This document shows positions 1 to 17,658 of a stretch of DNA of 64,000 bases, one piece after another. The translations under genes were made by a program, and so were the position numbers. The DNA is from a virus (taxonomy: Duplodnaviria; Heunggongvirae; Uroviricota; Caudoviricetes). The stretch covers positions 1 through 64,000 of the IMG/VR virus record IMGVR_UViG_3300047557_004483; one strand, written 5' to 3'. Under the pieces are notes generated by a model. The model had not been told where the DNA came from, did no database searches, and saw nothing but the letters and a program-made list of their open reading frames with translations. How positions within the stretch are numbered: the first letter of the stretch is position 1; the number at the start of each line of letters is the position of its first letter.

Positions 1-120
1 TTTAAGATGGGTTCAACGAAGGGGGATATTATATAAGGAACAAGAACCGACGAAGTCGGTCGGGGACCGTCGGTCAAAAAGGGGGTAGGGGGATTGTCGT
101 CGGTTTCCGGCTGCAGAGAA

Positions 121-426
121 TTAACAAGCCCTTTTGCGTTCGAAATATTCTTCGGTAAGGTCAACATAAAATAGGTCCTTCAATTCTTCAAAAACAGCCA
201 AATAGTCAAAACCATCAATCAAATAATATGACTCATGAATGTCATCCATTAAAGTAAGATAAAATTCGTTTTCGTATTGTTCAAAAGAATTTGTCGTACA
301 AGGGTCAACATTTTTTAATGTTTCTTTAAATGATTTTTTAATCATATCATACCTCCTCAATATCCATAACCTACTAGGAGAGTATGTAATTCTTTTATAT
401 TGTTCTTCCGTTATGATATATTTCAT
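121..426 (-). CDS. hypothetical protein with family-A N-terminal leader MKYIITEEQYKRI
   Basis: ORF 121..480 trimmed to the internal ATG (424-426). The first 18 codons of the long ORF are just the translated terminator hairpin of the upstream gene. N-terminus matches 7710, 8167, 15956, 16347 and 17389. Confidence 0.5.
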   Translation of the reverse strand: MKYIITEEQYKRITYSPSRLWILRRYDMIKKSFKETLKNVDPCTTNSFEQYENEFYLTLMDDIHESYYLIDGFDYLAVFEELKDLFYVDLTEEYFERKRAC

Positions 427-439
427 ATAAGATAAATAG

Positions 440-476
440 AACCACAAATAAAAAACCCCTCCGATAAAGAAGGGGT
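440..476 (-). terminator. Rho-independent terminator (CCCCT..AGGGG hairpin + T-run on minus strand) after gene 498..1088
   Basis: Inverted repeat cccctcc/gaagggg followed on the minus strand by TTTTTTATTTG. Confidence 0.5.
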
Positions 477-497
477 TCATAATTCACTATATCGAAA

Positions 498-1088
498 TTA
501 TTTAACAACTGTAAAATTACCCAATTCCATATTTCCCGATAATTTACCCGGAGAATAAGAATATAATTCAACCTGTGTGCCATTTTTCAATGACTGACCC
601 TGATATGTACCAGGTCCTGTAATTGTTCCCAAAATAAACTTCGGTTCAGATTTAACAATCTGAATTGTATAAACCTGACCATCCTTATCCCTTTTTGCTT
701 TAACAACTTGACCTGAAGAAAAATTAGATGATTGATGACTCTGACCTTCAGATTGTTCTTGTATTGTTGTAAGAATTTCATCCCCATCACCACATTCATA
801 ATTATACTTTTTCTTTGTCACAGGGTCCATCGCTCTACCATTAGAATAATATTGCATCTTTCCATCAGTTTTAAATTTCTGACCATTAGGACTAAGACCA
901 TCTTTCATTTTTTTCACACAAGGATATTTCGACCATACATCAGCTTGCTCAACCAATGGTTTTGCATCACCTGACTTTGTACTAACCAATTTTGAAAACT
1001 TCGATGTATCAATTCTAATTTTCTCTGTATGTTGTTCACGGATAGAATTCTTTTCTTTCTCCGTTAAATCATTCAATAAATGTTTCAT
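498..1088 (-). CDS. hypothetical protein; paralog of 1172..1525 (shared KFPC..SP(N/K)GQKFK..Y.NGR core)
   Basis: ATG at 1086-1088. Core motif KYPCVKKMKDGLSPNGQKFK..YYSNGR matches KFPCLSDFKEMVSPKGQKFK..FYPNGR in the neighbour. Confidence 0.55.
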   Translation of the reverse strand: MKHLLNDLTEKEKNSIREQHTEKIRIDTSKFSKLVSTKSGDAKPLVEQADVWSKYPCVKKMKDGLSPNGQKFKTDGKMQYYSNGRAMDPVTKKKYNYECGDGDEILTTIQEQSEGQSHQSSNFSSGQVVKAKRDKDGQVYTIQIVKSEPKFILGTITGPGTYQGQSLKNGTQVELYSYSPGKLSGNMELGNFTVVK

Positions 1089-1107
1089 AATTTTTGTTTA
1101 TAATAAA

Positions 1108-1148
1108 TACCCCATAAAAAATAAAACCCCCTAACATTGTAGGGGGGA
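1108..1148 (-). terminator. Rho-independent terminator CCCCCTA-acattg-TAGGGGG + TTTTATTTTTTAT (minus strand)
   Basis: Perfect 7-bp inverted repeat at 1127-1147, followed on the minus strand by a T-rich run. Confidence 0.6.
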
Positions 1149-1171
1149 TATTATTTAATTTATAATGAACT

Positions 1172-1525
1172 TTAAACGTCAGGTGCGTTAGGAAACTTCG
1201 GGTCATCTGATATAACAATATTCTGATTATCATAACATTTAAAATATGCCATAGTTTTATCGTGCTTATGTAAAACCCTTCCGTTAGGATAGAAATGATA
1301 ATCTCTCCAAAAATCTGTTCCCATTTTAAATTTCTGACCTTTCGGACTAACCATTTCTTTAAAATCACTCAAACAAGGGAATTTAGCAAATTCATCTTGT
1401 TTTTGACTCATACTCTTTGTAGGAAGATTCATCTTATCAACCATTTTAATCATATCTTGTTCGTTCAAAACCCTACTTACTATTCGAGATAAATCACGTT
1501 CTGTTAATCTTACTTTCTTTTTCAT
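1172..1525 (-). CDS. small hypothetical protein, family-B leader MKKKVRLTERDLSRIVSRVLNEQ
   Basis: ATG at 1523-1525. N-terminal 23 aa are near-identical to 1564..2001, 2059..2460 and 35361..35669. Confidence 0.6.
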   Translation of the reverse strand: MKKKVRLTERDLSRIVSRVLNEQDMIKMVDKMNLPTKSMSQKQDEFAKFPCLSDFKEMVSPKGQKFKMGTDFWRDYHFYPNGRVLHKHDKTMAYFKCYDNQNIVISDDPKFPNAPDV

Positions 1526-1563
1526 AGTATTTTTATAATAAATATATTTTTGGAACGTTTTGG

Positions 1564-2001
1564 TTACCTAAGTTCTCCACCTCTGAGAACCCTTGCATTT
1601 ATTCCAAACTTTTTATTTCCTGAAGTAAACAGAAGTGAATCCCCCGTCCAATTTTGACGTTCCATTCCCTGTTTTAATGAAACCACCTTACCTGGTACTT
1701 GTTTCTGACTTTTCAATATATCATTCAAAGACTCCATCCCCAAAGACACATTCCCGAAGTGGTCTGTTTGGTCCATCGGTGTTACGTTCCTCACAACATA
1801 TTTGTTCGGTCCAAAACTTACAACAATTCTATTGTTAATTTTACTTAACACACATGAACCACCAGAGTTTTTAACCAACCCCGTAAGTTCATCGATATTA
1901 ATTTCTTTCAATTCATCCAATAACCCCATCCCCTGTTCATTGATTACTTTATTAACCAAACGAACCAACTCAGTCTCTGTCAATCTTACAACCTTTTTCA
2001 T
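1564..2001 (-). CDS. small hypothetical protein, family-B leader MKKVVRLTETELVRLVNKVINEQ
   Basis: ATG at 1999-2001. The leader is shared with neighbouring genes; the C-terminal parts are unrelated. Confidence 0.6.
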   Translation of the reverse strand: MKKVVRLTETELVRLVNKVINEQGMGLLDELKEINIDELTGLVKNSGGSCVLSKINNRIVVSFGPNKYVVRNVTPMDQTDHFGNVSLGMESLNDILKSQKQVPGKVVSLKQGMERQNWTGDSLLFTSGNKKFGINARVLRGGELR

Positions 2002-2007
2002 ATTTTT

Positions 2008-2048
2008 AATTTTACATGAAAACCCCCACTTAAAATTGGAAGGGGGGC
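2008..2048 (-). terminator. hairpin CCCCC-n14-GGGGG(G) between genes, probable terminator
   Basis: ccccc at 2023-2027 pairs with ggggg at 2042-2047; a TTTTC run follows on the minus strand. Confidence 0.4.
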
Positions 2049-2058
2049 AAACTTCAAT

Positions 2059-2460
2059 TTATTTCATCTTTCCCTTTATACAAGAATATAAATCCCCAAG
2101 TTGAGATGAAGTTTGTTTTAACGAACTAATACATGGACCACTTTGAAAGTTTGATGTCCCACCACACTCTTTTGGAAATTGAAACTTTGTTTGTTGAATA
2201 CATGCAGAAATCACAGGAACACTATCCTTATTCTTGAAAAGAAAATATGCAACCTTACCCATCATTACAGGAGGGAGGTTTCCCAATACCATTTCAATAG
2301 GAAATAATACCATCTTCTTGAGAACCTGTTTCGCATTTGGTAAATCAAAATTTATTGAAGATAATTTATCCATAAATGATGATTGTTTCTCCTGTTCAAT
2401 TAAAACCCTTTTAACCAACTTCGATAAATCCGACTCAGTTAATCTTACAACCTTTTTCAT
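2059..2460 (-). CDS. small Cys-containing hypothetical protein, family-B leader MKKVVRLTESDLSKLVKRVLIEQ
   Basis: ATG at 2458-2460. Conserved leader; 6 Cys in the C-terminal half. Confidence 0.6.
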   Translation of the reverse strand: MKKVVRLTESDLSKLVKRVLIEQEKQSSFMDKLSSINFDLPNAKQVLKKMVLFPIEMVLGNLPPVMMGKVAYFLFKNKDSVPVISACIQQTKFQFPKECGGTSNFQSGPCISSLKQTSSQLGDLYSCIKGKMK

Positions 2461-2488
2461 ATATTCCTACTTTATCATAAATACAAAA

Positions 2489-2521
2489 TTTTCCCAAAAA
2501 TTTTTTTTTGACTATAGGGGG
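2489..2521 (-). promoter_or_regulatory. conserved upstream element copy 1: (minus strand) CCCCT-ATAGTC-AAAAAAAAATTTTTGGGAAAA, about 50 nt upstream of the ATG of 2059..2460
   Basis: Near-identical copies at 2868-2899 and 3201-3245, each upstream of a minus-strand small gene. Confidence 0.45.
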
Positions 2522-2544
2522 TAAATTATAAAAGGGGGGTCATG

Positions 2545-2832
2545 TTATCTACCATCATATTGCCACATTACAGCATTACAGTGTGAATGAACAGCACCTT
2601 CCGTCATATTAGTTACATGATTATGTTGAAGATGAATCGGATAATCAAAAAACTTGGATGGGAAAAGACTCTCGTCGATTTGTTTGAAAATATGTGGAGA
2701 TAAATTATCCAATCTTTCGCCACAATAATAACACAACCCTTTTTGTTCTGATATATACTGTTCCCTAACTTCCCTCTTCTCTAATTGATTTAGTTTTGTA
2801 TAATCAGTGGGTAAATTATATTTTTTTTCCAT
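2545..2832 (-). CDS. HNH endonuclease
   Basis: CYYCGERL..HLQHNH..HSHCN is a CxxC..H-N-H..CN zinc-finger/HNH motif. The ORF-track start at 2877 is TTG; the first ATG (MEKKYNL) is at 2830-2832. Confidence 0.6.
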   Translation of the reverse strand: MEKKYNLPTDYTKLNQLEKREVREQYISEQKGLCYYCGERLDNLSPHIFKQIDESLFPSKFFDYPIHLQHNHVTNMTEGAVHSHCNAVMWQYDGR

Positions 2833-2867
2833 TTGGTTAGTATAATGAACAAACCGAAATGGGTCAA

Positions 2868-2899
2868 TTTTTCCCAAAAATTTTTTTTGATTAAAGGGG
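2868..2899 (-). promoter_or_regulatory. conserved upstream element copy 2 (CCCCTTTAATC-AAAAAAAATTTTTGGGAAAA on minus strand) upstream of the HNH gene
   Basis: Direct sequence identity with copies 1 and 3; GGGTTTATAAACCC palindrome adjacent. Confidence 0.45.
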
Positions 2900-2900
2900 T

Positions 2901-3173
2901 TTATAAACCCAATTTAGATTTAACGTAAGCCAACAACTCCCTTTCATATTTCAGATATGATTTCCAATATGACTCGTCATCCCCAAACTCATCAATGTCG
3001 TTGAAGTTTTTACTTTTAATTAACTGTCTGATACCATCATATAATGCCGTGTCCAAACTCTCCCCGTCATCAATCATTTCCTTAACGTCAAGAACAATTT
3101 GTTCAAGGTCTTCCATAGAAAACCTCCTTTTCAAAAAATTTGTTAGTTGTGATTCTTTAACAATATAATCCAT
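2901..3173 (-). CDS. hypothetical acidic small protein
   Basis: ATG at 3171-3173; preceded by conserved upstream element copy 3. Confidence 0.5.
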   Translation of the reverse strand: MDYIVKESQLTNFLKRRFSMEDLEQIVLDVKEMIDDGESLDTALYDGIRQLIKSKNFNDIDEFGDDESYWKSYLKYERELLAYVKSKLGL

Positions 3174-3200
3174 AGTTTATAAATACCCAAAATGGTCCCA

Positions 3201-3245
3201 TTTTTCCCAAAAATTTTTTTCGTTTAACAGAGGGGATTATACCCC
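3201..3245 (-). promoter_or_regulatory. conserved upstream element copy 3 (GGGGGTATAATCCCC hairpin + AAAAAAATTTTTGGGAAAA on minus strand)
   Basis: Sequence identity with copies at 2489 and 2868. Confidence 0.45.
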
Positions 3246-3405
3246 CTATTCTGACATTCTGACGTATGGGGAGGGGGGATACCTAGGAGGAGGGGGGTGG
3301 CACCCCCATGCCAGAGGGGGGTATAATGGGGGGGAGTTATCCACAATTTATACCCCTCCCCCTGTTAGTTACTAACAGACATAATGACGGGGGGGGATAA
3401 GTAAG

Positions 3406-3834
3406 TTAAGTTGTGGGGATAAGTTTTTTTGGTATTAAGAAACCTGACACTCCTATTGAGGTGGGGAGTTTAAGGTCAGATGGAATAGATTGGGAGTAGT
3501 GTACTCCTCTGATGGTCTCTTCGATTTCTTTTTGGAGTGGGAGATAGTCTTCCTCTGTATCGAAGAAGAATTTAAATGACATACCATATACATAACCTGG
3601 CATGAATATCTCACTGAGGTATTTTAGGTGGGACCATATCTTTGCTTCGGGGTATTCTTCCATGAACATATTCGGGTCGATAATAATATATACAAAATGG
3701 ACCGAGTTATAGTCTTCGAAGTTCTCGGTGGGGACCACATCAATAATGAAGGGGAACTCTTTCTTTAGTAATCTTTTGGTTACCTTATATTCATAGTTGT
3801 CCAAGAATTCTTCCCTTGTTAGTTTACCGAACAT
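3406..3834 (-). CDS. hypothetical protein
   Basis: Clean ORF; no recognisable motif. Confidence 0.5.
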   Translation of the reverse strand: MFGKLTREEFLDNYEYKVTKRLLKKEFPFIIDVVPTENFEDYNSVHFVYIIIDPNMFMEEYPEAKIWSHLKYLSEIFMPGYVYGMSFKFFFDTEEDYLPLQKEIEETIRGVHYSQSIPSDLKLPTSIGVSGFLIPKKLIPTT

Positions 3835-4102
3835 AAATTATTTTTTGTTATATCATAAATACATTGTATCTTTGCTTTGTCTGAATATAAGTAGGACGGG
3901 CTGGAGCGAACCTCTTGGAGCTGAATCAGGGGCAGGTTGCTTAATAATATTATTAAGGTCAAGTTTTCTGCTCGAAAAACTTGACCTTAATATGTGGATA
4001 ACTTTATTTGGCAATATGGGAAATATTTCGTATCTTTGTAGGTTATTCCCCCCTATAAAAAAAAGTTTTTGCCATGTCAGAAAATAGTCGTATCTTTGTG
4101 GT

Positions 4103-4513
4103 ATGACAAACAACAATAAGACATATCTAAAGACATCGACCATTACAGAGATGACCCTCCCGCAATTAAGGAAGGTGACAGACCTTACTCTTATGTATTG
4201 TACCAATAAGTTCGGGACCCATAAGTATAAGCCTGTGCCTAAGGTCAGCATCATAAACAACCCCGACTATAAGTTCTATGGCATGTTCGAGTGTTCGAAG
4301 AATACCATTGTATTGAACAGGGCATATTGTGATACCGTGAAGTTGTATACCCAAACCCTACTTCATGAGTATACTCACTACCTTCAGAACATGACCAAGT
4401 ATACCCAAATATTCAAGAAGGTTGGATATGATACTCACCCCTATGAAGTGGAGGCAAGAAACAATGAGCAGTTATATTCAGAAGCTTTCAAACAAATAAA
4501 ACCATTGATATGA
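4103..4513 (+). CDS. putative zinc metallopeptidase (HExxH: LLHEYTHYLQ) small protein
   Basis: HEYTH motif with a downstream Glu (HPYEVEA). Two TATCTTTG -7-like promoter elements lie immediately upstream (4027-4042, 4088-4102). Confidence 0.5.
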   Translation: MTNNNKTYLKTSTITEMTLPQLRKVTDLTLMYCTNKFGTHKYKPVPKVSIINNPDYKFYGMFECSKNTIVLNRAYCDTVKLYTQTLLHEYTHYLQNMTKYTQIFKKVGYDTHPYEVEARNNEQLYSEAFKQIKPLI

Positions 4514-4658
4514 GATTCATACTATCCGCACTTGTCGTAGGGTTCCTATTCCTTTGGGGGTTACAAAACATCCCCGACTTTATTGGATATATAATTGTGG
4601 GGACCGTAGTAATTCTATTAGTAAGAGAAATAAATAAAAAGTAATATGAGAAAGTTTC

Positions 4659-4973
4659 TTAAAGCAGTTTTCCTTGGGTATCTCCTGATGTGGGTATGGT
4701 CCCTGTTTCAGAATAGGAACCGATAAGTTGTTGACACCAAGCAACTAAGTCCTTGGGGGTTGCACTCTCCCCACCATAAACGTATAGTCCCTCGACTTTA
4801 GCTTCCACACATGCCCATCCACTCTGTCGGATGGGTTTTGTGTTCCACCCCTTCTTTGCTTTCTCGAAATATAATACCCCCACTTCTATTCCCTCTACCT
4901 GTAATACTACTCTCACTCGGTCCTCAGTAAGTGACTCTATCGTTGGGGTTACAATGTCTTTCCATGTCTTCAT
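4659..4973 (-). CDS. hypothetical protein
   Basis: ORF only. Confidence 0.45.
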   Translation of the reverse strand: MKTWKDIVTPTIESLTEDRVRVVLQVEGIEVGVLYFEKAKKGWNTKPIRQSGWACVEAKVEGLYVYGGESATPKDLVAWCQQLIGSYSETGTIPTSGDTQGKLL

Positions 4974-5697
4974 GTCATAATGGTATTACGGAACATATAA
5001 AAATAAATAATTATCCACACTGACATTGTGTCTGACGCTATTAAAAAAGGGGATGTGGATAACTTTTTATACGGAAAAATTTGGAATTGTCAGAATGTCA
5101 GGGGATGCGTTGAGATGGGGATAATCCCCTCGACACATTTTCCCCCACTTTCTCCCACCACTGATTCCCACTTTTTACCACCGATATTGTGTTATAGATA
5201 GTGTCAGGACCACTTTTTCCCCTCTGCAGATATCAGGAGGACCATATTTTTACTATATCTATTTCCCAGATAAAAAAGGATAATATAGTGTAGTAGCGGG
5301 GGAGTGAACGAAGTGAACCTAAGATAGTATAAAATACCCCTTCAACGACCGAAGGGATAGGTTTTAGATGACCCCTCGTATGGACCAAACGAGTCCCCTT
5401 CATAGTGGACAACTCATATGGTGGGAATATGTGGGAAGAGTATAATTTTGTCATTAGAACCACAAAGTGGTACCTTACACAAAAAATTACTCTTAAAGAA
5501 CTATATGGTTTACTCCTTATGATTATATCTGATTACATATAATTTAAACCGAAGGTATGTTTTTATATGTAATTGCATATAATCATCTAAACAAACCATT
5601 ATACCACCATCTCATTATGTCCTGTCATTAAATGGGGGACGAACTATATGGTGGGGGAGTTGTAAAGGATTACTCGACAACTTATATATTTATTATC

Positions 5698-6243
5698 ATG
5701 GAAGAATCATTAAAGAAATTAATTAGAAAAGTTATACTACCGAAATATTATTGGATTAAGGATTTTGATGTTCAGGTAAGGAAAAAAGATGATACAGGTG
5801 ATTCATATCGTGTTCTTTATTTTGTTGATAAAGATGTACATTATGAACGTAGTGTAATTGATAATATACAAAATGATACTAAAGAATTATATGATGTTCT
5901 CGGACTTCACAAATTTGATTTCTATGAAGGTGTTATGTTTTTTAGTTATCAATCACATAAAATGCAACAATCATTAGAAAAATTAATTGGAGAAGTTATA
6001 CTACCGAAATACCCTTGGATAAAGGATTTTGATGTTTTTGGAGAAGACGATTTCGGAGAGTATATATATAGTATTCACTATTACGTTGATTTTGATGAAT
6101 ATGAGAAAAAGGATAGAAATGAAATTACTCATATAAAATCTGAAAGTAAAAATTTATTTAATTCTCTTGAACCGAAAGAAAATGATTTTTTTAGAGATAT
6201 AGAATTTCTTAATGCTCGAGAATACAATTTGAACCCTAAATAA
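5698..6243 (+). CDS. hypothetical protein with two copies of an about 90-aa repeat (KLI(R/G)xVILPKY(Y/P)WIKDFDV..)
   Basis: Internal duplication. A third copy of the domain forms the next gene. Start moved to the ATG at 5698 (MEESLKK). Confidence 0.55.
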   Translation: MEESLKKLIRKVILPKYYWIKDFDVQVRKKDDTGDSYRVLYFVDKDVHYERSVIDNIQNDTKELYDVLGLHKFDFYEGVMFFSYQSHKMQQSLEKLIGEVILPKYPWIKDFDVFGEDDFGEYIYSIHYYVDFDEYEKKDRNEITHIKSESKNLFNSLEPKENDFFRDIEFLNAREYNLNPK

Positions 6244-6265
6244 CACATACGATTATAGACTGAGT

Positions 6266-6565
6266 ATGATGAAAGTTTTGTTAGATAAGTTGATAAGGAA
6301 ATTGATAATTGGTAAGTATCCTTTTATAGAGGACTTTGAAATAAAGGCAGATACTTTTAGACCCGTTATGGGTAAGTTAAAAAAGATTGGTGTTGAAAAA
6401 TATGTGGTCATTTATTATGTTACCCCTGACGAAGATGGAGATATTACTATAACAGAAGATTTTAAAGAAGTGGCTGAATTAACTGAGACTTGTTTTAATG
6501 CACTCGGACCTGAGCACTATCAGCGATTTGATGATGTGGAGTTTCATAGTACTGAAACTATATAA
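6266..6565 (+). CDS. hypothetical protein, single copy of the KLIRKLIIGKYPFIEDFEI repeat domain
   Basis: Paralogous to the two halves of 5698..6243. Both genes are followed by the same 15-nt post-stop element ACATACGATTATAGA. Confidence 0.55.
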   Translation: MMKVLLDKLIRKLIIGKYPFIEDFEIKADTFRPVMGKLKKIGVEKYVVIYYVTPDEDGDITITEDFKEVAELTETCFNALGPEHYQRFDDVEFHSTETI

Positions 6566-6572
6566 TACATAC

Positions 6573-6659
6573 GATTATAGAGTAAGGTGGTGAACGCAAG
6601 GACTTCCGAACGAAGTGAGGAATGTATTGTCCTGTAGTGAACTAACTTACTCTATAATC
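6573..6659. repeat. 14-bp perfect inverted repeat (GATTATAGAGTAAG / CTTACTCTATAATC) with a 59-nt GC-richer spacer; bidirectional terminator or small structured RNA between convergent genes
   Basis: Arms at 6573-6586 and 6646-6659. The spacer contains GAACGAAGTGA, shared with 5304-5318. Confidence 0.5.
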
Positions 6660-6678
6660 TCACATTTATAGATTGATA

Positions 6679-7089
6679 CTAACCTACTATCTTAATATTG
6701 ATACCCATATAACCGCAAAGACCTTTGATATGCTCTATCTTTTTTTCTGTAGAAGAATATGTAGAGACAAACCCTCCGTTATTAATTTGGAATTTTGATG
6801 AGTTATCATTATGTGACTCGGGAAATTCATTTTCTGTTTTTCGTAAAAAACAATTTAAGAATGGTTTCATTTCATCATAGGATAGAATCTTAGAAACATC
6901 CATTAAGAACTGTGTATAGTTTCTCGTGAAAATATCACTGTCGTATGTTTTTCCTAACGCTTGAAAATGTAGAATTGTTTTGGGAGACTTTTTTTGTTTT
7001 GTGGTAGTTTTTTGATTAACAAAATTAATTACCATGTTGATGAATTCATCTTGGTTATCCCTGATTGTTTTTTCTAATAGATTTGTCAT
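6679..7089 (-). CDS. hypothetical protein
   Basis: ORF only. Confidence 0.5.
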   Translation of the reverse strand: MTNLLEKTIRDNQDEFINMVINFVNQKTTTKQKKSPKTILHFQALGKTYDSDIFTRNYTQFLMDVSKILSYDEMKPFLNCFLRKTENEFPESHNDNSSKFQINNGGFVSTYSSTEKKIEHIKGLCGYMGINIKIVG

Positions 7090-7206
7090 TATAATTATGT
7101 TTCTACAAAAATAAAGATTATTAAAATATAAATCAATATCTAGCTAGTAAAATTTTTTTGTGGTATCGGAATTTATCGTAAATTTGTATTTCTAAATGAA
7201 ACTACC

Positions 7207-8162: not shown

Positions 8163-8166
8163 CAAA

Positions 8167-8559: not shown

Positions 8560-8565
8560 TAATCT

Positions 8566-9877: not shown

Positions 9878-9930
9878 GATATACTTTTGTGTAAAAATAC
9901 ATCATTTCGAGCAAATAGTAAAAAGATTAT

Positions 9931-10644
9931 TTATTTTACTACTCTGATTTTGAACTCTTCGAAAAATTCAGGATAACTTTCGATATAACCTTGTAATGTT
10001 TCGTCATCGTATTCAATATCTTCGGCATTCCAATACCAATAAAGGTTTTTGTCAGATTTGAAGCCATAATAGGTATGGTTGTCATATTGCTGTTTACAAA
10101 TATGGTCAGCATATTGGTGTTGACCTACAATTATGAATCCCGAGGTAATATCTTTAATTATATTGGATTCTCCGTAAGGTATATATCTATTATTTATCCA
10201 ATTTAACCTTTCGATTAATTTTTGATAAAACATATTTGCAGAACCCCATCTAACCGATGCAAAGAAAATTACACAGTCTGATTCAAAAAGTTCTTTACTT
10301 ATTTGCCAAAGTTCGTCGTCAGGATTATTTATAGATGCCCAACACCTATGGTAACCACTAGGATTTTTTTCTTTGTCTTCCAATAAAGCTTCTTTAATTC
10401 CACAGACATTTCCCTCCATTCTCGAAACATTACCTTCACAAGGATAAATTTTCAGTTTGGTCACATCTATTAGGGTAGAGTTATCTACATTTTTATTTAT
10501 TACTCTCGCTAAAATAGTTGATTTGGGTGTTTGAGTTTTAATTACTTCCGCACCTCTATTTGAACACGTAAGTAACAAAACTTTTTTATATTTTTGTAGT
10601 TGTTCGATTGTTTTTTTAAGTTTCGAATGATTACCCTCTTTCAT
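9931..10644 (-). CDS. hypothetical protein (possible flavodoxin-like fold: VLLLTCSNRG..)
   Basis: Weak resemblance to FMN-reductase-type N-termini. Confidence 0.45.
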   Translation of the reverse strand: MKEGNHSKLKKTIEQLQKYKKVLLLTCSNRGAEVIKTQTPKSTILARVINKNVDNSTLIDVTKLKIYPCEGNVSRMEGNVCGIKEALLEDKEKNPSGYHRCWASINNPDDELWQISKELFESDCVIFFASVRWGSANMFYQKLIERLNWINNRYIPYGESNIIKDITSGFIIVGQHQYADHICKQQYDNHTYYGFKSDKNLYWYWNAEDIEYDDETLQGYIESYPEFFEEFKIRVVK

Positions 10645-10662
10645 AATAAATAAATATAAACA

Positions 10663-11865
10663 TCACACAAATACTGACGGTATATCCGCCCATGATGTCG
10701 TGAACTTCTGAGACATAAACTCTTGTCTCATTTCCCACTTTTTCTCCGTGTTTGCTGGTGGTTGAACAAGTTGTATGGATGATGAAAATAGCGTACCTTG
10801 TTCTATAGACTCTGGCATTAGCTCATTAAAGATTATCCCACACTTTTTGTATTTCTTCTTATCAGAATATAGTTTCCTTAAATGTGGATATACTTGTGAC
10901 CATATCTCTTCCACATCTCTTGTTTGTCTTTGAAATGTTATTTGTTTGCTTGAATAGTGTTTCTCCCCCTTGTGTACATTTCCACATATGAATATGGTTG
11001 CTCTATTTGGTGATATCTCATTATCTATTAGTTTCTTTATACCACTCTTTATGTACGAATACATCGCTTCAGCTATTTGGTCAAACGAATCTATATCTTG
11101 TCCGAATGACCTTGTGGATGCAACATTTCTTTTTAACTTCGGGACCTTCTGAACAGGATGGCAATATTCCCCTAATAGTTCCATCTTTGTCTTTAACCCA
11201 TTCACATTCATTAACTTTCTTACAATTGCATCTGCCATCATAACAAACTGTCCCACACTATCTACTCCGAGCGAGTTTAACTTCTTTGTCCACTTTCTTC
11301 CTATTCCCCATACTTCATCTATTGGAATTGTGTAAAGTGAATTCCTAAAATTATGTAAAGACCAATATGAACATATTCCATTATATGTCGGTTGTTTCTT
11401 TGCAATATATGACGTTAGTTTTGCCAATGTTTTATTCGGACCTACACCTATTGACACAGGTATTCCCGTTAGTCTCTTAACTTCGTTTCTAATCAAATGT
11501 AACCTGTCTTCTAACTCATCATCAGGTATGTTTGAGAAGTCTACAAAACATTCATCTATGGAATATACTTCTACCTCGTTTGCATATTTCTTTATGGTTG
11601 TCATCACCCTGTCTGACATATCACCATATAAGTTGTAATTTGAACTGTATACACAGAACCTGTGCTCGTCCATGAAGTCTTTCCTCTGAAAGAATGGTTC
11701 TCCCATCTTTATCCCTAAATCTTTGGCTTCTTGTGAACGGGCAATAACACATCCGTCATTGTTGGATAATACAACGGTAGGTCTCCCTATGGATATTGGA
11801 TTGAATACTCTCTCACAACTTACATAGAAATTGTTGCAATCTACAATTCCGATTTTCTTGTTCAT
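10663..11865 (-). CDS. umuC: Y-family translesion DNA polymerase (UmuC/DinB-like)
   Basis: N-terminus IGIVDCNNFYVSCERVFNP..VVLSNNDGCV..AKDLGIKMG is the canonical Y-family palm; it lies downstream of a umuD-like gene, as in the umuDC operon. Confidence 0.85.
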   Translation of the reverse strand: MNKKIGIVDCNNFYVSCERVFNPISIGRPTVVLSNNDGCVIARSQEAKDLGIKMGEPFFQRKDFMDEHRFCVYSSNYNLYGDMSDRVMTTIKKYANEVEVYSIDECFVDFSNIPDDELEDRLHLIRNEVKRLTGIPVSIGVGPNKTLAKLTSYIAKKQPTYNGICSYWSLHNFRNSLYTIPIDEVWGIGRKWTKKLNSLGVDSVGQFVMMADAIVRKLMNVNGLKTKMELLGEYCHPVQKVPKLKRNVASTRSFGQDIDSFDQIAEAMYSYIKSGIKKLIDNEISPNRATIFICGNVHKGEKHYSSKQITFQRQTRDVEEIWSQVYPHLRKLYSDKKKYKKCGIIFNELMPESIEQGTLFSSSIQLVQPPANTEKKWEMRQEFMSQKFTTSWADIPSVFV

Positions 11866-12182
11866 TATAACTTATTTAATATCCATGAAACTCTTCCCCA
11901 CAGATTTTGTTGTCCTTCGTATCTTCTAATCTTGAAACAAACCTTATCTGTCAACACAACAAGGTCTCCCTCCACAGGGTCAATAGATTTGTCTATGACA
12001 AGAATATTCCCTTTCTTTACACCGAGGGAATCGGGACCCATATACCTAAAATAAAATGTGGTATGAACGTTTTCGATAATCAGTTCATTAAGGTCTAACC
12101 TCTTGTCTACATACGACTCCGCAGGTGAAGCAAATCCTGTTGTCCTTGACTTGATTTGAAGTTCCTTCTCTGTAGTATACAT
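11865..12182 (-). CDS. umuD: UmuD-like S24 peptidase (short, UmuD'-like N-terminus)
   Basis: GFASPAESYVDKRLDLNELI matches UmuD GFPSPAADYVEQRIDLNQLL; Ser (MGPDSL) and Lys (FKIRR) candidates are present. Only about 14 aa precede the GF, with T-G rather than C/A-G at the cleavage position. Confidence 0.75.
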   Translation of the reverse strand: MYTTEKELQIKSRTTGFASPAESYVDKRLDLNELIIENVHTTFYFRYMGPDSLGVKKGNILVIDKSIDPVEGDLVVLTDKVCFKIRRYEGQQNLWGRVSWILNKL

Positions 12183-12264
12183 GATACAAATATAATAAAA
12201 AATTGTGACGATAAAAAGATATTGAACTGTTAGACAACCAAAACTTTTTTGTTATATTTCCTAA

Positions 12265-13041
12265 ATGAAGACAATTAGACAATCACTGACTGAAATAGTT
12301 AACTTTGATTTTGTTAATGCATCACAAAAAGAAATTGAAAATATACTTCCGACCTTTGGAATGAACAATGAATACATTAGTGAAATACCTCCCATGTTCT
12401 CGAAATATATGGGATGGGGCATTAAATTTTGGCAATACCCAAACCAACTTAGTAAATTACTTTGTCATTTGAAAGGAAAGAAAATTAATTCATACTTAGA
12501 AATTGGTGTAAGGTATGGTGGTACATTTGTTTTAATAAACGAATTACTTAAAAGATATAATAACTACGTGGAATCTCATTGTGTCGATGTTATTCCTGCT
12601 TCTGAAATATTACACACCTATCAACATGAATTTGCAAGAGATAGGTTTTATTATCACCAAACCCCATCACACAGTTCTACTTTCTTTGATACACTTACTG
12701 GTGTTGACCAAATATCTGTCGCCATTACTACAAAAAAAATTGATTTAGTATTCATCGACGGATGCCACACCTATCCTTGTGTTAAACAAGATTATGTAAC
12801 CGCACTTATCTTAGGTGCAAAATACATTATCTTTCACGACATAAGTAACACTAACTCGGAAAGTACTAGATTGATTTGGAGTGAAGTCAAAAAAAATCAC
12901 AAGAAGACCTATGAATTTATTGACCAATATGAAGGTATGGACGCTAATTACTTAGGTATTGGACTTGTAGAAGTTTCACCTGAGGATGCAGTATTTCCGA
13001 TGTTCGAATCAAATTATCCAGGTGTCGAGTTGTCGTTGTAA
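12265..13041 (+). CDS. class I SAM-dependent O-methyltransferase, TylF/CmcI-like
   Basis: LEIGVRYGGT (motif I-like) and DLVFIDGCHTY (the D..H metal/acceptor motif of the macrocin-O-MT/CmcI family). Confidence 0.5.
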   Translation: MKTIRQSLTEIVNFDFVNASQKEIENILPTFGMNNEYISEIPPMFSKYMGWGIKFWQYPNQLSKLLCHLKGKKINSYLEIGVRYGGTFVLINELLKRYNNYVESHCVDVIPASEILHTYQHEFARDRFYYHQTPSHSSTFFDTLTGVDQISVAITTKKIDLVFIDGCHTYPCVKQDYVTALILGAKYIIFHDISNTNSESTRLIWSEVKKNHKKTYEFIDQYEGMDANYLGIGLVEVSPEDAVFPMFESNYPGVELSL

Positions 13042-14279
13042 TATTCTTCTATTTCCTCTGAGAAATTATCTTCGATGTATTTGGTTATATATGGGGCAAG
13101 TTTCTCCCTCATTTTCATTATTTCTTCATAGTTTTCCTCTCCTGAAGAAAGAGAAATTTCTCTAACAACATTGAAAATAATTCTTTCCATGTATTCGTCA
13201 TAACTATTAAATGACCATGGTGCCAACCATTCATAGGTATTTCTTATAAAATTAGGTAACATCTCAAACAATCTTCTTTTGAGATAAACAGGAATTACCG
13301 ATTCTGTAACTAAATCATTGTTTGTACCACAGTGAGGACAGATTGGTAAAGACTTTTTTCCTTTATGAATTGTTTGTGTAAACTTCTTTTTGCAGTTAAC
13401 ACACTTGACCCACTCCTCTCCTGATTTTTTTTCTTCCTTGATATTAATTTTGATTTTAACTTTGGTAACCTTTGGAGTTATACCTAAAAGTCTACAAACA
13501 GACAATCTTGTGTTTCCCGCAACTAAGTATGGTGGATGGTTGTCTGCGTATGCAACTATAGGTGTTTCAACTATTCCTCCATTTTTGAGCGGTTCCATCG
13601 AATGTTTAATTATCCTTTCCTCACTCCTACCCCATTGCCCATGTATAATATCGAACAAATCTTTATATGTTTCTATTGTCCAACTATCCGTATTTTCCAT
13701 CTTCGACCATTCTTCATCAGTTAATGATTTCACATCAGCCCTTTCATAAGCACTATGAATATCATCAATAAGTTTGTCTAATTGTTTATTTGAAAAATGC
13801 TCAAAGTTTACTTGAAGAACGTCGTCTTGTAACCAATTAAGAAAATGATTCATAAATTCGTTTTCTTCCGTTTGGAACTCAGGTTTGACCCATTCGATTT
13901 TTTTTTCTTCTGAATTTTCATTAAGATTATCTACGTTTTTTCTATTCAAAATTTTAATAGACCTCAAAATCTGTTCATATTTTTCTCGACTGAGACTGAA
14001 TTGACCCTCATTTGTCCAATATTGTATTGCTTCAGGTTTTGGATGTTTGATTGCATCGTAAACCCATTCTTGACCTTGTTCAGGATTTTTCAAGTTCCAT
14101 AATGTAACTATATTCGAATCCCCTTCCCAATTTGATGGAACTAATTCACCATTTACATGTGGTTCGGTGACCCACAAAACACCTTTGTTAACCAAATCAG
14201 AAAAATCAAATATTTCTCTTTCGGATTCACTTAAACCCATCATCTCTTTAATTCTTAATATGTTTTCTTGTAAGTTCAT
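13014..14279 (-). CDS. hypothetical protein with family-C leader MNLQENILRIKEMMGLSES; ParB-like (AGNTRLSVCRLLG) region and C-terminal CxxC..CxxC zinc ribbon
   Basis: Start set at the conserved ATG (14277-14279); the ORF-track upstream extension reads through the neighbour. Confidence 0.6.
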   Translation of the reverse strand: MNLQENILRIKEMMGLSESEREIFDFSDLVNKGVLWVTEPHVNGELVPSNWEGDSNIVTLWNLKNPEQGQEWVYDAIKHPKPEAIQYWTNEGQFSLSREKYEQILRSIKILNRKNVDNLNENSEEKKIEWVKPEFQTEENEFMNHFLNWLQDDVLQVNFEHFSNKQLDKLIDDIHSAYERADVKSLTDEEWSKMENTDSWTIETYKDLFDIIHGQWGRSEERIIKHSMEPLKNGGIVETPIVAYADNHPPYLVAGNTRLSVCRLLGITPKVTKVKIKINIKEEKKSGEEWVKCVNCKKKFTQTIHKGKKSLPICPHCGTNNDLVTESVIPVYLKRRLFEMLPNFIRNTYEWLAPWSFNSYDEYMERIIFNVVREISLSSGEENYEEIMKMREKLAPYITKYIEDNFSEEIEEYYNDNSTPG

Positions 14280-14280
14280 A

Positions 14281-15426
14281 TTATTTTTCACTTCGATAAA
14301 TAACTTTGAATCTTTGTTTTTCCTCAATAGGTAATTCCAACTTTTCGAACTTTTCATTTTCTACTTGGAATCTTTCTTCATCTTTGTATTTCCACTGACC
14401 ATAAAAAGAATAAACTTTACCAGTTGTGGTATCAACTACAGTATCTCCACCTCTCGGTTCTAACCCTTCATATTTTTTGATTTTATCTTCTATAGACATT
14501 TCAGGGTTTTCCTCTAAACTATCAAACCAATTCGTAAAATCTTCACCCAACTTTTCTTTTAATTCAGGTGATATTCGTACAGATTTTTTATCGGTAAATT
14601 TATTCGATACAAAATCATTAAATATTTTTTTAACATCTTCGTTAATGTTTTCATCTATAACCAACACATGTTGTTGTAACAATAAAGACATCAAATTATA
14701 ATCAGGGTTTGATAATAAATCTTGATATATCATTTTAATTTCCGCCGAACTCCCCATACCACTTGTAATGTATCCAAGTTTCCTAATCATCGCCAAATAA
14801 ATTAAAGTTCCTAATTTTTTTCCTCTTAATTTTTCGGGTACTCCTTTATAAAAATGAATCCTATTTTGCGAAGGTTCCAAGTTCACGTAAGTTGTTCTAT
14901 CTTTAACATCTAATTCTTTAGCACATTCGTAAGGAAATTTAATTCTATAAACCTTACCACCTTCCTGAGTAACACCATAAGCTCTTTCTAAAGATTTTTC
15001 ATCTTTAGCTACCAGTGGACCAATAATTTCGAAATTGGAGGGGTCACAATTCACAACTTCAGATTTTGGTTTTTGTTTTCCCCTCAAACCATAATAATCC
15101 GAAAATATTGAATACAGCAATGAGTTGAATTTTTTTGAACCATGGGATATCATATAGTTCAGGTATTTGTTGTCTAAATTTTGTAAATCTTTAGATAAAA
15201 CAGGTTTCTTTACAAATGGGTCTTTATCAATTACAACTGAGTTTTTGAATTTAACAAAATCACCATCAGATGATTGTAGTTTATCTTGTAATAAATTTGA
15301 AATCTCCTTCTTGTATTTAGGAAAATTTTTTATATTCATCATAACATAAGAATCTGATGGTACATCTAAGGTTTCATTGATACCCATCATTTCCTTAATC
15401 CTTTGTATGTTTTCTTGTAGGTTCAT
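14281..15426 (-). CDS. hypothetical protein with family-C leader MNLQENIQRIKEMMGINET
   Basis: Start at the conserved ATG (15424-15426). Confidence 0.6.
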   Translation of the reverse strand: MNLQENIQRIKEMMGINETLDVPSDSYVMMNIKNFPKYKKEISNLLQDKLQSSDGDFVKFKNSVVIDKDPFVKKPVLSKDLQNLDNKYLNYMISHGSKKFNSLLYSIFSDYYGLRGKQKPKSEVVNCDPSNFEIIGPLVAKDEKSLERAYGVTQEGGKVYRIKFPYECAKELDVKDRTTYVNLEPSQNRIHFYKGVPEKLRGKKLGTLIYLAMIRKLGYITSGMGSSAEIKMIYQDLLSNPDYNLMSLLLQQHVLVIDENINEDVKKIFNDFVSNKFTDKKSVRISPELKEKLGEDFTNWFDSLEENPEMSIEDKIKKYEGLEPRGGDTVVDTTTGKVYSFYGQWKYKDEERFQVENEKFEKLELPIEEKQRFKVIYRSEK

Positions 15427-15427
15427 A

Positions 15428-15904
15428 TTACTTTTTCTTTTTAACACAATTGGGGTATCTTTTACCGAACATTGTTTTCATTCCTTTCTGAGTATATCCT
15501 TTCCAACATCTCTCAGTAATTTCTGATTCGTTCTGTTCTTCTTTCATATCTGAATCTGACATATATTCGGAACAAGTTGTTTGGTAAATATCAATCAAAT
15601 ACTGACCAAAGAAAATTCTTGACATACTTCTCAAATAATCCATAACATCACTAATGTAGTCCTGCTCGAATATGTTTTCGTCCACATCATCCAATAATTT
15701 ATCAACTGCATAATCAATTACAGCGTCTGCATATTCATATCCATCCTCAAAATCATCACACAGAGTTGGATATTCTACTTCTGCTCTGAATATATATTCT
15801 TTCAGTGTCTCACGATTAGCTCTCCTTTTAATTGAGTTTGGAATAGTGGACTCAGTTATACCCATCATCTCTTTAATCCTATGTATGTTTTCTTGTAAGT
15901 TCAT
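15428..15904 (-). CDS. hypothetical acidic protein with family-C leader MNLQENIHRIKEMMGITEST
   Basis: Start at the conserved ATG (15902-15904). A divergent TATCTTTG-type promoter region lies upstream. Confidence 0.6.
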   Translation of the reverse strand: MNLQENIHRIKEMMGITESTIPNSIKRRANRETLKEYIFRAEVEYPTLCDDFEDGYEYADAVIDYAVDKLLDDVDENIFEQDYISDVMDYLRSMSRIFFGQYLIDIYQTTCSEYMSDSDMKEEQNESEITERCWKGYTQKGMKTMFGKRYPNCVKKKK

Positions 15905-15955
15905 ATTATGTCTATAAAGATAAATATCTTTGTATTTATTACTAAACAAAGCTAA

Positions 15956-16342
15956 ATGCGATATATTATAAGTCCATCTCAATTTCATTCCTTGGTTTAC
16001 AGATACCTTACGGAAATTTTCTCAAAAGAAGATTTCAGGAATTACAAAAACCCTCATGTTGAAGATGGTAGCGTATGGAGAGTTGAAATTCATACTGACG
16101 ACGGGGAACGTTCAATGAGTTATTTTTGGTATGGTCCTGGTGAAGACGACGATGGAAATCTACATAATGGTATGGGTAGTCTTTACATTGACTCCAATTT
16201 GGTCGACAACCTAAGAATAAATCTTAACGTAAGAGAAAGTAAAATAATTGATATTCTTGCAGATTGGGTTAGTGAAAAATTGAATGTTGAAATAGATGAA
16301 GTAGGTATTACTCGTGAACCTGGTAATCGTTCAGTTTATTAA
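15956..16342 (+). CDS. hypothetical protein with family-A-like leader MRYIISPSQFHSLVYRYL
   Basis: ATG at 15956. AAATATCTTTGTATTTATT promoter-like element at 15923-15940. Confidence 0.55.
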   Translation: MRYIISPSQFHSLVYRYLTEIFSKEDFRNYKNPHVEDGSVWRVEIHTDDGERSMSYFWYGPGEDDDGNLHNGMGSLYIDSNLVDNLRINLNVRESKIIDILADWVSEKLNVEIDEVGITREPGNRSVY

Positions 16343-16346
16343 TTTC

Positions 16347-16685
16347 CTATTTCTCCAATCTTTGAGTTGAGTTTCCCGAAAGGTCTTTGAATTGAACACC
16401 AAAAAACGTTTGACTTGCCCTTTTAACTCCAAAGTTTTCTACAACCCACTCTCTGATTATTTTTTTCAAGTCTCTGATGTCATCAAAGAAAAATGTGTTA
16501 GTGATATGGTCAATAATACTTTTGTCGATTACGACTCTGTTAGGATAAATTGTCATCATCACTTGACCGTCTACGTATATATTTCTACCATCGCCTTCGA
16601 ACTTCATTTTGTAACCCGTAAAGTTATCCGCCAAAATATTATAAATCAATGAATCAGATTGACCTTCGGTGATGATAATTTTCAT
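16347..16685 (-). CDS. hypothetical protein with family-A-like leader MKIIITEGQSDSLIYNIL
   Basis: ATG at 16683-16685. Confidence 0.55.
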   Translation of the reverse strand: MKIIITEGQSDSLIYNILADNFTGYKMKFEGDGRNIYVDGQVMMTIYPNRVVIDKSIIDHITNTFFFDDIRDLKKIIREWVVENFGVKRASQTFFGVQFKDLSGNSTQRLEK

Positions 16686-16703
16686 ATCTTATAAATAGAT
16701 ATA

Positions 16704-16991
16704 TTAAGAAAAAGAATCATGTCCATTTTTAATAACTGCTTCCAAAATACCTATGGATTCTTTATCTTTTTTACTTTTATTTGGTTTCGATTTGAGTTCT
16801 CTCAGGGTTCTTTGTAAATCGTTCTCAGGTTTTTTTGTAGGTTTTGGTTTTACTTGAGTGACCTTGTTCGGTTTGACCTGTTTAAGTTTTTGATATGAAA
16901 ATTCGTCCTCGAATAATATCTTGTAAACTTTAGCAGTGATTATTGGGTCTTTGAGAAGGAGTTTGAGTGTAAGGTATTGTAATAGTTTCAT
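16704..16991 (-). CDS. hypothetical basic protein
   Basis: ORF only. Confidence 0.4.
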   Translation of the reverse strand: MKLLQYLTLKLLLKDPIITAKVYKILFEDEFSYQKLKQVKPNKVTQVKPKPTKKPENDLQRTLRELKSKPNKSKKDKESIGILEAVIKNGHDSFS

Positions 16992-17020
16992 ACCACAAAT
17001 ATACTAAATTAAATTCTAAA

Positions 17021-17368
17021 TTACTTATCGAAATAAAGTTGGTAAAGTGTAGTTTTCTCCCTCTTCAATGGGATTTTTTCGATTTTAACTTTTTTTGGTA
17101 ATTTACTTATTAGAGAAATCCAAGCTCTTTCCGCCTCTTCACTACGAAACACTGAATTTATTTTTATTGATGGTATCTCAGAAAGTAATTTCAAAATTGC
17201 TCTTTGATACAACCCCTTTCCTCTAAAACTTGGTATTATGTTTGCATCAATGATAGTAAATTCATTACCCCTGACATCTTTTTCTAATGTCATATACCCA
17301 ACTTCTTCCTCATCTTGAATTAGAGAAACATTCAAACCAAAATCATCTCTAATAATTTCTATATCCAT
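17021..17368 (-). CDS. putative GNAT-family acetyltransferase (small)
   Basis: IIPSFRGKGLYQRAIL resembles GNAT motif A (R/Q-x-x-G-x-G/A). Confidence 0.4.
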   Translation of the reverse strand: MDIEIIRDDFGLNVSLIQDEEEVGYMTLEKDVRGNEFTIIDANIIPSFRGKGLYQRAILKLLSEIPSIKINSVFRSEEAERAWISLISKLPKKVKIEKIPLKREKTTLYQLYFDK

Positions 17369-17388
17369 ATTGATAAATATTTAATAGT

Positions 17389-17658
17389 ATGTATTACATT
17401 ATAACAGAGGAACAGGTAAAAAGATTAGTCAAAGGTTGGAAAGTCAGTGAAGGACAGTTAACAAAAACTTTCAATTTCAAAACTTATAAAGATGTTTTGA
17501 AATTTGTTAATAAGGTAGGTTCAATTGCTGAAAAACAAAACCATCATCCTGAAATGTTAGTTAAATATAATTCAGTAAAAGTTTCACTGTTTGACCACGG
17601 AGCCAATAAAGTTTCGGACAAATGCCACAAGTTAGCCGACCTAATCAATAAGACCTAA
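17389..17658 (+). CDS. phhB: pterin-4a-carbinolamine dehydratase (PCD/DCoH)
   Basis: F.FK.Y..V..FVNKVG..AEKQNHHPEM..YN.V.V.L.DH fits the PCD signature (AEK-DHHPEW-YN) by eye. Confidence 0.75.
   Translation: MYYIITEEQVKRLVKGWKVSEGQLTKTFNFKTYKDVLKFVNKVGSIAEKQNHHPEMLVKYNSVKVSLFDHGANKVSDKCHKLADLINKT

Follow-up and report, generated by a model that had tools for sequence, protein, structure and literature searches.

Three classes of swappable N-terminal leader on unrelated accessory proteins of an uncultured phage clade, a possible analogue of the T4 capsid-targeting sequence

The internal proteins of T-even phages form a diverse defence set whose members share only a 10-residue N-terminal capsid-targeting sequence (CTS), a peptide which docks on the scaffolding core and is cut by gp21 at L/I-X-E (PMC3012670, PMC9026906). 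Gene-start elements of a different kind, the PeSL and PmSL, are mobile promoter-terminator cassettes of the hyperplastic regions of T4-type phages (PMC2839356, PMC4122927). Here we describe short N-terminal leaders encoded in a 64,000-nt stretch of viral DNA (Caudoviricetes; IMG/VR record IMGVR_UViG_3300047557_004483, positions 1 to 64,000), referred to below as the window. Three such modules, classes A, B and C, are present, and 13-14 of the approximately 100 genes in the window start with one, compared with a handful of genes per genome in T4. Like the CTS of T4 IPI, IPII, IPIII and Alt, the leader is a short N-terminal peptide common to otherwise unrelated, fast-evolving accessory proteins in variable regions. 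The leaders are most simply read as a putative address label.

The original prediction proposed a MKYIITE.Q-type leader on a series of dispersed genes, and all six of these genes are present where it placed them, with the starts it gave. Of 100 gene calls, 6 have the class A start, [KRY][YI]I[IV][TS][EP].Q directly after Met, while a scan of 18,033 internal positions gave no match, against 1e-5 matches predicted from composition (binomial P = 3e-33, for a pattern set post hoc, after the data had been seen). Ordinary chance is excluded as the source of the class A leaders at this P of about 3e-33. A scan of ATG starts with the looser pattern M-x-[YIFLV]-I-[IV]-[TSK]-[EP] recovered only the same six genes and a weaker copy at 2901-3173. 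The leader genes, including those of classes B and C, are as follows, L-numbers here and below denoting related loci or contigs and L214 the parent contig of the window.

121-426, minus strand: class A gene, starts MKYIITEEQYKRI; leader in approximately codons 1-14, at the high-coordinate end; body a predicted helical bundle with two conserved Cys
2901-3173, minus strand: degenerate class A-like gene, starts MDYIVKESQLTNF; the weaker seventh copy, with TATTTAT 5 nt upstream
7710-8162, plus strand: class A gene, starts MKYIITERQLNLI / MKYIITERQLNLINE, then a flexible linker, then a predicted ParB/sulfiredoxin-fold domain
8167-8559, plus strand: class A gene, starts MKYIISERQFNLI / MKYIISERQFNLINE; poly-acidic C-terminal tail
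15956-16342, plus strand: class A gene, starts MRYIISPSQFHSL; belongs to the largest body cluster
16347-16685, minus strand: class A gene, starts MKIIITEGQSDSL; TATTTAT 5 nt upstream
17389-17658, plus strand: pterin-4a-carbinolamine dehydratase (PCD; Pfam PF01329) with a class A-type N-terminus, starts MYYIITEEQVKRL
1172-1525, minus strand: class B gene, starts MKKKVRLTERDLSRIVSRVLNEQ
1564-2001, minus strand: class B gene, starts MKKVVRLTETELVRLVNKVINEQ; terminator-like hairpin at 2042-2023
2059-2460, minus strand: class B gene, starts MKKVVRLTESDLSKLVKRVLIEQ
35361-35669, minus strand: class B gene, starts MKNNPKVIRLNEEDLARIINKVIEEQ, its start 3 residues longer; the sole leader gene beyond the first 17.7 kb
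13014-14279, minus strand: class C gene, starts MNLQENILRIKEMMGL; true start an internal Met of open reading frame (ORF) 13014-14357
14281-15426, minus strand: class C gene, starts MNLQENIQRIKEMMGI
15428-15904, minus strand: class C gene, starts MNLQENIHRIKEMMGI; true start an internal Met of ORF 15428-15988
9931-10644, minus strand: leaderless orthologue of a class C-carrying family, the class C leader being present in most related phages
L214 1177-1611 and 1692-2252, minus strand: two more class B genes in the parent contig, just left of the window, start MKKIVRLTESDLVRLVNKVIKEQ and MKKVIRLTESDLVNLVTRVVNE; they raise the class B genes in that contig stretch to five

Differing bodies behind a common start had also been claimed, and in an all-vs-all BLASTP likeness between the class A proteins is limited to the first 15 residues or absent. 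The poly-acidic tail ascribed to 8167-8559 is visible in the sequence, and orthologues of 121-426 retain leader A. Membership of 17389-17658, initially given as possible, is borne out by its orthologues in other phages, which begin exactly MKYIITEEQ or MRIIITEDQ; the protein matches PF01329 over residues 6-88 at 4e-21 (75.2 bits, gathering cutoff 26). The class A logo is M-K-Y-I-I-T-E-(S/E)-Q-(Y/L/F)-(K/N)-(R/K/L)-(L/I), that of class B is M-K-K-(I/V)-(I/V)-R-L-T-E-S-D-L-x-R-(I/L)-V-K-R-V-I-x-E-(Q/N) and that of class C is M-N-L-Q-E-N-I-x-R-I-K-E-M-M-G, and forms intermediate between classes exist, for example MKSIQITESQLNNLVKEIL.

The leader is conserved as peptide and not as DNA. A DNA pattern degenerate at all codons retrieved 103 non-redundant class A genes, and among these K2, Y3, I4, I5, T6, E7 and Q9 are each encoded by all of their synonymous codons; codons at T6, E7 and Q9 follow background usage, and bias is observed only at Y3 (TAC) and I5 (ATA). 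The 70 nt upstream of seven class A genes in the window are unalignable, and their leader codons differ synonymously. This combination of synonymous codon variety and unalignable upstream DNA indicates that the conserved object is the peptide, with an additional nucleotide preference in the first five codons, and the leader is very probably a portable tag under protein-level selection. Two ways in which the similarity might have proved trivial had been named at the outset, collapse on comparison of the DNA and recent duplication of whole genes. Neither is the case, as the codons vary synonymously within unalignable surroundings and the bodies are unrelated in BLASTP.

The codon preference bears on an alternative in which the leader is part of a gene-start cassette, consisting of a phage promoter, a leaderless or very short 5' end and optimised first codons, spread by recombination in hyperplastic regions. 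The peptide would then be mostly a passenger, and the cassette would secure efficient expression of new or imported genes in a host that makes no use of Shine-Dalgarno (SD) sequences. In E. coli libraries of codons 3-5, yields were highest with K|N and then Y|I among the early codons (PMC6920384), and MKYII and MKKI match this optimum, classes A and B starting M-K-Y-I-I and M-K-K-I/V with residue types that maximised yield; the bias at Y3 and I5 is of the kind that such a cassette would leave. However, the ramp described in E. coli extends over about 3 codons whereas the leaders are 14-23 residues long and phage-specific, and conservation of amino acids to residue 14-23, together with background codons at T6, E7 and Q9, lies beyond a ramp of 3-5 codons.

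Pooling the related loci and the window gave 317 proteins with a class A leader, 107 with class B and 43 with class C; the total of 467 falls into 157 body clusters unrelated by BLAST; leader classes are mixed in 7 of the 157. The largest cluster has 94 members, and the median leader protein of the set is 116 aa, many being without a database match. Exchange of the leader is most directly seen in L100 (class A, MKYIITEAQYKLIME-ASSPAQQ...) and L119/L109 (class B, M.KIVRL.ESDL.KL..R.LKE...-ASSPAQQ...), which are 88-92% identical over 121 residues. Alignment of their DNA shows homology beginning exactly at the junction of leader and body, everything upstream being unrelated. Similar pairs are L082 (C) and L105 (A), 61% identical, and L038 (B) and L029 (A), 62% identical. 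In the family of 9931-10644 the class C leader, carried in most phages, is absent from the window copy, L102 and L021, indicating that the leader is dispensable for the body, and the family of 7710-8162 has members with a class A, a class C or no apparent leader. Counting distinct contexts, the leader core stands at the N-terminus in 98/102 for class A, 59/61 for class B and 22/23 for class C, approximately 96% overall. These alignments indicate a leader module that recombination has attached, at its boundary with the body, to accessory proteins of many unrelated kinds. In the exchanged pairs the leader and all upstream DNA change together, which also counts for the cassette alternative.

Ordinary divergent homology, in which the leader proteins descend from one small ancestor and only the N-terminus remains recognisable, or else chance, could be raised given that many of the proteins are small, unmatched in databases and, for 94 of them, members of one cluster. 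We regard it as very improbable, as the leader precedes complete and unrelated folds (ParB/sulfiredoxin, PCD, lysozymes, sigma-70, GNAT, alpha/beta hydrolase) and the same body is found with leader A, B, C or none. Body domains recognised by Pfam start right behind the leader: a tail lysozyme at residue 30 (L027), sigma-70 region 2 from residue 32 (L100) and an alpha/beta hydrolase from residue 27 (L014), with the same layout in GNAT (L155) and lysozyme plus LysM (L079) proteins. Further cargo domains are Pterin_4a, SET, ART-PolyVal, DUF2237 and LRR, most bodies being without a Pfam match. This repertoire suits host takeover.

The body of 7710-8162 had been described as a ParB-like nuclease domain; the fold is supported, the nuclease label is not. 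Neither a direct Pfam scan of the protein nor phmmer against PDB sequences gave a match. Its homologues carry precomputed PF02195, DGNHRA is invariant in the family, and in the predicted structure the leader and linker (residues 1-43, including a helix at 7-14) have a low predicted local distance difference test score (pLDDT), whereas residues 44-150 form a confidently modelled domain. The best PDB matches of this domain in Foldseek are ParB, Noc, sulfiredoxin and SbnI (best E 5e-4, prob 1.00), only the top match having an E below 1e-3; a ParB/sulfiredoxin fold is thus supported by the model. The model of 121-426 (pLDDT 88.5) is a confident helical bundle after residues 1-14, and Foldseek against PDB returned no significant match for it.

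Two observations on the bodies stand apart from the leader counts. The proteins of 498-1088 (minus strand) and 1172-1525 (minus strand) have a body domain in common (33% identity over 78 aa, E 1e-9) and differ at the N-terminus, 498-1088 starting MKHLLNDLTEKEKNSIREQH in place of the class B leader of 1172-1525; 28475-29662 and 29682-30914 start similarly, and the MKHLLNDLTEKEKNSIREQH-type start may be a further leader variant. The motif CWKGYTQKG.K..FGKRYPNCVKKKK, in the last 40 residues of 15428-15904 (minus strand), matches the C-terminal ends of several functionally uncharacterised PHROG families (best E 1.8e-6), and a similar Cys-rich C-terminal tail is present on other leader proteins of related loci, for example L063 737-1618.

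Search of IMG/VR with the degenerate DNA form of the class A pattern, ATGAARTAYATHATHACNGARNNNCAR, detected at least 120 loci; among the matches listed, many are on contigs of 100-321 kb, with up to 6 tandem copies. Classes B and C occur together with A in these loci, the GC content of which is 27-36%, and a related 276.6-kb contig (L001) has ten leader genes within 20 kb. The presence of the leaders in related phage genomes, which the original prediction had asked about, is thus established. In contrast, 596 Gb of bacterial and archaeal genomes contain nine sites, all in metagenome-assembled genomes. Optimisation for host translation as the sole cause of the leader is weakened by this near absence from cellular genomes, and the cassette alternative meets the same difficulty, as host-type genomes face the same translation constraints and essentially lack the leader. 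Megablast of window positions 1-20000 against 50,697 phage records gave no match, and tblastn of 7710-8162 and of the class B consensus against the same records (INPHARED) returned nothing. Pfam and PHROGs searches of the leader proteins found no family covering the leaders, DUF6576 matches falling on the body behind the leader; a full-text literature search for the leader strings found no paper, and a cluster look-up for named homologues gave metagenomic hypothetical proteins only. A profile of 64 class A N-termini (42 aa) produced 67 candidates from a set of 5.8 billion proteins, a number which is no gauge of abundance. No earlier description of the leaders turned up in Pfam, in PHROGs or in the literature that could be searched.

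The most frequent 7-mer upstream of the leader genes is TATTTAT, found 4-6 nt before the ATG of 113/256 class A genes and absent in about half, and at class B genes located either 4-6 or 14-17 nt before ATG. In the window it precedes 9/14 leader genes and 20/86 others (p=0.003). It occurs there 56 times, and 29 of these copies lie in gene orientation no more than 30 nt ahead of a start; spacing is mostly 4-7 or 11-16 nt before ATG, and in the related loci it is very tight, with a mode of 5 nt. Examples are

432-438, minus strand: TATTTAT
3179-3185, minus strand: TATTTAT
7698-7704, plus strand: TATTTAT
16691-16697, minus strand: TATTTAT
43861-43867, plus strand: TATTTAT

The element is a putative phage promoter, the transcripts of which would have no 5' leader or a very short one. 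Sigma-70-type matches are not enriched (84 found, 85.7 expected). GC-rich hairpins followed by T-runs lie directly upstream of small genes at three positions:

478-453, minus strand: hairpin with T-run, preceding the TATTTAT that lies 5 nt upstream of 121-426
1146-1127, minus strand: hairpin with T-run
2042-2023, minus strand: hairpin with T-run

Terminator-like sites number 18 in positions 1-18000 (9.0 +/- 3.6 expected), three of them directly before small genes of the leader cluster, two of which are leader-bearing. Hairpin and TATTTAT together form terminator-promoter composites reminiscent of PeSL cassettes.

The cassette alternative draws on these features, namely the top-ranking TATTTAT and its enrichment at leader genes of the window, terminator hairpins before some copies, and an SD-like element in only 4/100 genes. 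The likeness to PeSL extends to conserved gene-start elements that flank ORFans, breakpoints of gene exchange at the element, and a hairpin followed by a promoter-like element. PeSL differ in being non-coding and in ending at the start codon, whereas conservation of the leader lies within coding sequence at the amino-acid level and extends to internal copies that lack the Met; PeSL also have a sigma-70 pair where TATTTAT is found here. About half of the class A genes are without TATTTAT, including 8167-8559, which begins 4 nt downstream of 7710-8162 in an operon-internal position, and upstream DNA other than the 7-mer is not conserved. Conservation of amino acids to residue 14-23, the lack of TATTTAT at half of the class A genes and the absence of the leader from cellular genomes speak against a cassette as a sufficient explanation, and we consider it unlikely.

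Related leader-carrying contigs encode a T4-type head. In L063 and L030 the head genes are in T4 order, terminase, portal (Portal_T4, 9e-74), protease (Peptidase_S77, 9e-21; L063 6549-7232), an acidic scaffold-like protein (L063 5288-6463) and capsid protein (Gp23, 1e-71), and leader-bearing PCD and flavodoxin-like genes adjoin this module. Close relatives of the capsid protein are on more than 600 IMG/VR stretches, some contigs reaching 250-324 kb. At the place of the T4 gp23 cut, the capsid protein has LINE|AA as its predicted maturation site, without variation across 42 loci. Leader genes lie within 10 kb of the capsid locus in 23/80 loci, always outside the portal-to-capsid block; their presence inside the head module is ruled out, as none was found between portal and capsid genes in the 80 loci. 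The window, with low GC (about 0.30-0.36 outside a collagen-repeat block) and dense small genes, has 3 genes in common with the head-module loci and 37 with the leader loci, sharing from which we infer that it derives from the same kind of jumbo phage. The leader clade would be a large group of uncultured, low-GC jumbo phages with T4-type heads. Type IX secretion system (T9SS) sorting domains and SprB repeats in related loci, together with the scarcity of SD-like elements, make Bacteroidota the probable host, and, judged by the capsid protein, the closest relative in culture is Flavobacterium phage immuto, which has the same head module. As a separate observation, L001 15614-17866 encodes a 750-aa outer-membrane protein of the TonB-dependent-receptor type (Plug, OMP_b-brl_3) beside a beta-helix protein, an unusual phage cargo if the contig is purely viral.

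The T4 CTS is the peptide MKTYQEFIAE. By inspection, the leaders resemble it only in M-K and one aromatic residue. Resemblance lies in arrangement: gp20-type portal, gp21/S77 protease and gp23 capsid genes are present in related carrier contigs, (L/I)-x-E is present in the peptide, and T4 Alt is an ADP-ribosyltransferase, as an ART-PolyVal domain is found among the leader proteins. The claim that (L/I)-x-E motifs recur in the leaders holds at fixed positions in all three classes, at position 7 in A, 9 and 21-22 (73%) in B, and 5, 12 (59%) and 17-19 (83%) in C, and NLINE is present in the window leaders of 7710 and 8167. Each leader would begin with a hydrophobic stub of a few residues (MKYII or MKKvvRL), behind which lies an amphipathic helix with a cap (T-E-x-Q/D-hydrophobic). 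By analogy with T4, the tag would dock its cargo on the scaffolding core as the prohead assembles, the S77 (gp21-type) protease would trim the tag at (L/I)-x-E, and the cargo, including ParB/sulfiredoxin, ADP-ribosyltransferase, GNAT, SET, sigma factor and lysozyme proteins, would be packaged and injected with the DNA. That the leaders are a greatly expanded analogue of the T4 CTS is tentatively ranked first, since the tag logic is shared, related contigs encode a T4-type head, (L/I)xE is fixed and the capsid has the LINE|AA site. Doubtful in its full form is a three-flavour address code, of CTS type and expanded tenfold, that routes dozens of swappable cargoes per genome, nucleotide-binding ParB/sulfiredoxin proteins and acetyl- and methyltransferases among them, into the prohead for co-injection. 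MuF-fused toxins and polyvalent proteins provide another parallel, having one delivery module, many swappable cargos and recombination at the junction, as here; MuF-type modules are, however, whole domains of at least 100 residues with known carriers, in contrast to the 15-23 residues of the leader, which is carried by small proteins of a single domain.

The motif has a second interpretation. Classes A and B have in common hydrophobic-T-E-x-(Q/D)-hydrophobic, the pattern of a helix capping box in which Thr is the N-cap, N1 is acidic and a hydrophobic staple is present. AlphaFold2 places coil at residues 1-6 and a helix at 7-14 in each of two families that are unrelated to one another. The logos have 3-4 hydrophobic residues, then T-E and a charged amphipathic helix; by inspection, the core of a Sec, Tat or lipoprotein signal peptide (approximately 7-15 uninterrupted hydrophobic residues) is not seen in them. 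Since I/L-T-E also marks the start of a helix, (L/I)xE, a motif of low information, is weak evidence for recognition by a protease. The original prediction of systematic tagging, drawn from the three leader classes, is supported in part: the leaders form a system, three classes on at least 157 bodies that are swappable, N-terminal and nearly confined to viruses.

A protein-level tag for another destination, whether docking to a shared partner (such as a phage Hsp70/DnaJ chaperone system, a compartment for replication or assembly, or some other hub protein), oligomerisation, or a helix for solubility or self-association that keeps small accessory proteins stable, is accommodated by the same modularity evidence. 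Helices of classes B and C are strongly amphipathic (hydrophobic moment, muH, about 1.4-1.5), metabolic enzymes and a sigma factor as cargo suit a cytoplasmic role better than packaging, and internal copies kept in fusion proteins suit a structural or docking helix. Chaperones are encoded in the clade and may be relevant to the leader question. The window has a DnaJ-like gene at 57592-58509 (minus strand), identified by visual inspection and from BLAST matches to its Cys-rich repeat region, and two paralogues with DnaJ-type CxxCxG zinc-finger repeats at 24454-25368 (plus strand) and 26044-26889 (plus strand), E 7e-46 between them; L022 8764-10632 encodes a full-length Hsp70 (4.8e-260). K-flanked hydrophobic stubs, such as KYII and KKIVRL, resemble Hsp70-binding cores, which counts in favour of such a partner. 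Set against this, three classes of dissimilar sequence would have to share one partner or one task, amphipathicity is only weak in the class A helix (muH 0.56), and a generic helix needs no strict N-terminal placement with fixed spacing from Met. We hold a destination of this kind to be rather doubtful.

Several findings weigh against prohead targeting, the reading ranked first. The window itself is without head genes, and the possibility that the cultured relative shares the leaders was rejected, immuto having none in 150 kb; searches of cultured phages (INPHARED) for the leaders were likewise negative. In 42 loci no TATTTAT precedes the capsid gene, which has instead AAAATAATAAAT and an A-rich leader, a type of upstream motif almost absent from the window. 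TATTTAT as a late promoter that ties the leaders to head assembly is rejected by these two observations, from which it follows that the leader genes may not be late genes. They are very numerous, 13/31 genes in the first 17.7 kb carrying a leader. Unlike the T4 CTS, the leaders are 14-23 residues long, are conserved past the first (L/I)xE and form three classes rather than one, and I/L-T-E-x-Q/D-hydrophobic as a helix N-cap with hydrophobic staple may make the protease motif incidental. Leaderless orthologues exist, the few internal leader copies lie in apparent gene fusions and persist there, and some cargoes are enzymes of metabolic type (PCD, a flavodoxin-like family) or proteins that have hydrophobic segments.

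Other genes of the window are noted for completeness.

44904-51286, minus strand: three tandem genes of 695-725 aa, mostly collagen-like G-x-x repeats (Gly-Ala-Gln) with globular ends, GC ~0.5; probably fibre proteins
10663-11865, minus strand: Y-family (IMS/UmuC-type) DNA polymerase, with precomputed PF00817/PF11799 on the identical L214 gene
11865-12182, minus strand: abuts 10663-11865 and by eye looks UmuD/LexA-type; the two could be a phage-borne translesion synthesis pair
5632-6243, plus strand: 203-aa protein with two copies of the unit LxKLIxKVILPKYxWIKDFDV...
6266-6565, plus strand: 99-aa protein formed of the same unit, E 4e-8 against 5632-6243
31314-32168 and 37233-38102, minus strand: paralogues (E 1.5e-15) that have SPPY, a typical motif in N6/N4 DNA methyltransferases; 32128-32577 adjoins the first
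33626-33698, minus strand: lone tRNA-Met (CAT) gene in approximately 1.4 kb without a long ORF

If the tags are address labels, sequence alone would reveal the injected or co-localised arsenal of a large clade of uncultured phages, and hundreds of candidate anti-defence and host-takeover proteins, as well as new peptides for loading phage capsids, would follow. Should the function instead be related to expression, the leaders would show how phages of SD-less hosts equip foreign genes with a standard start module, and would account for many of the 'ORFan' N-termini seen in viromes from fresh water and the sea. The leader pattern is simple enough to serve as an annotation rule now.

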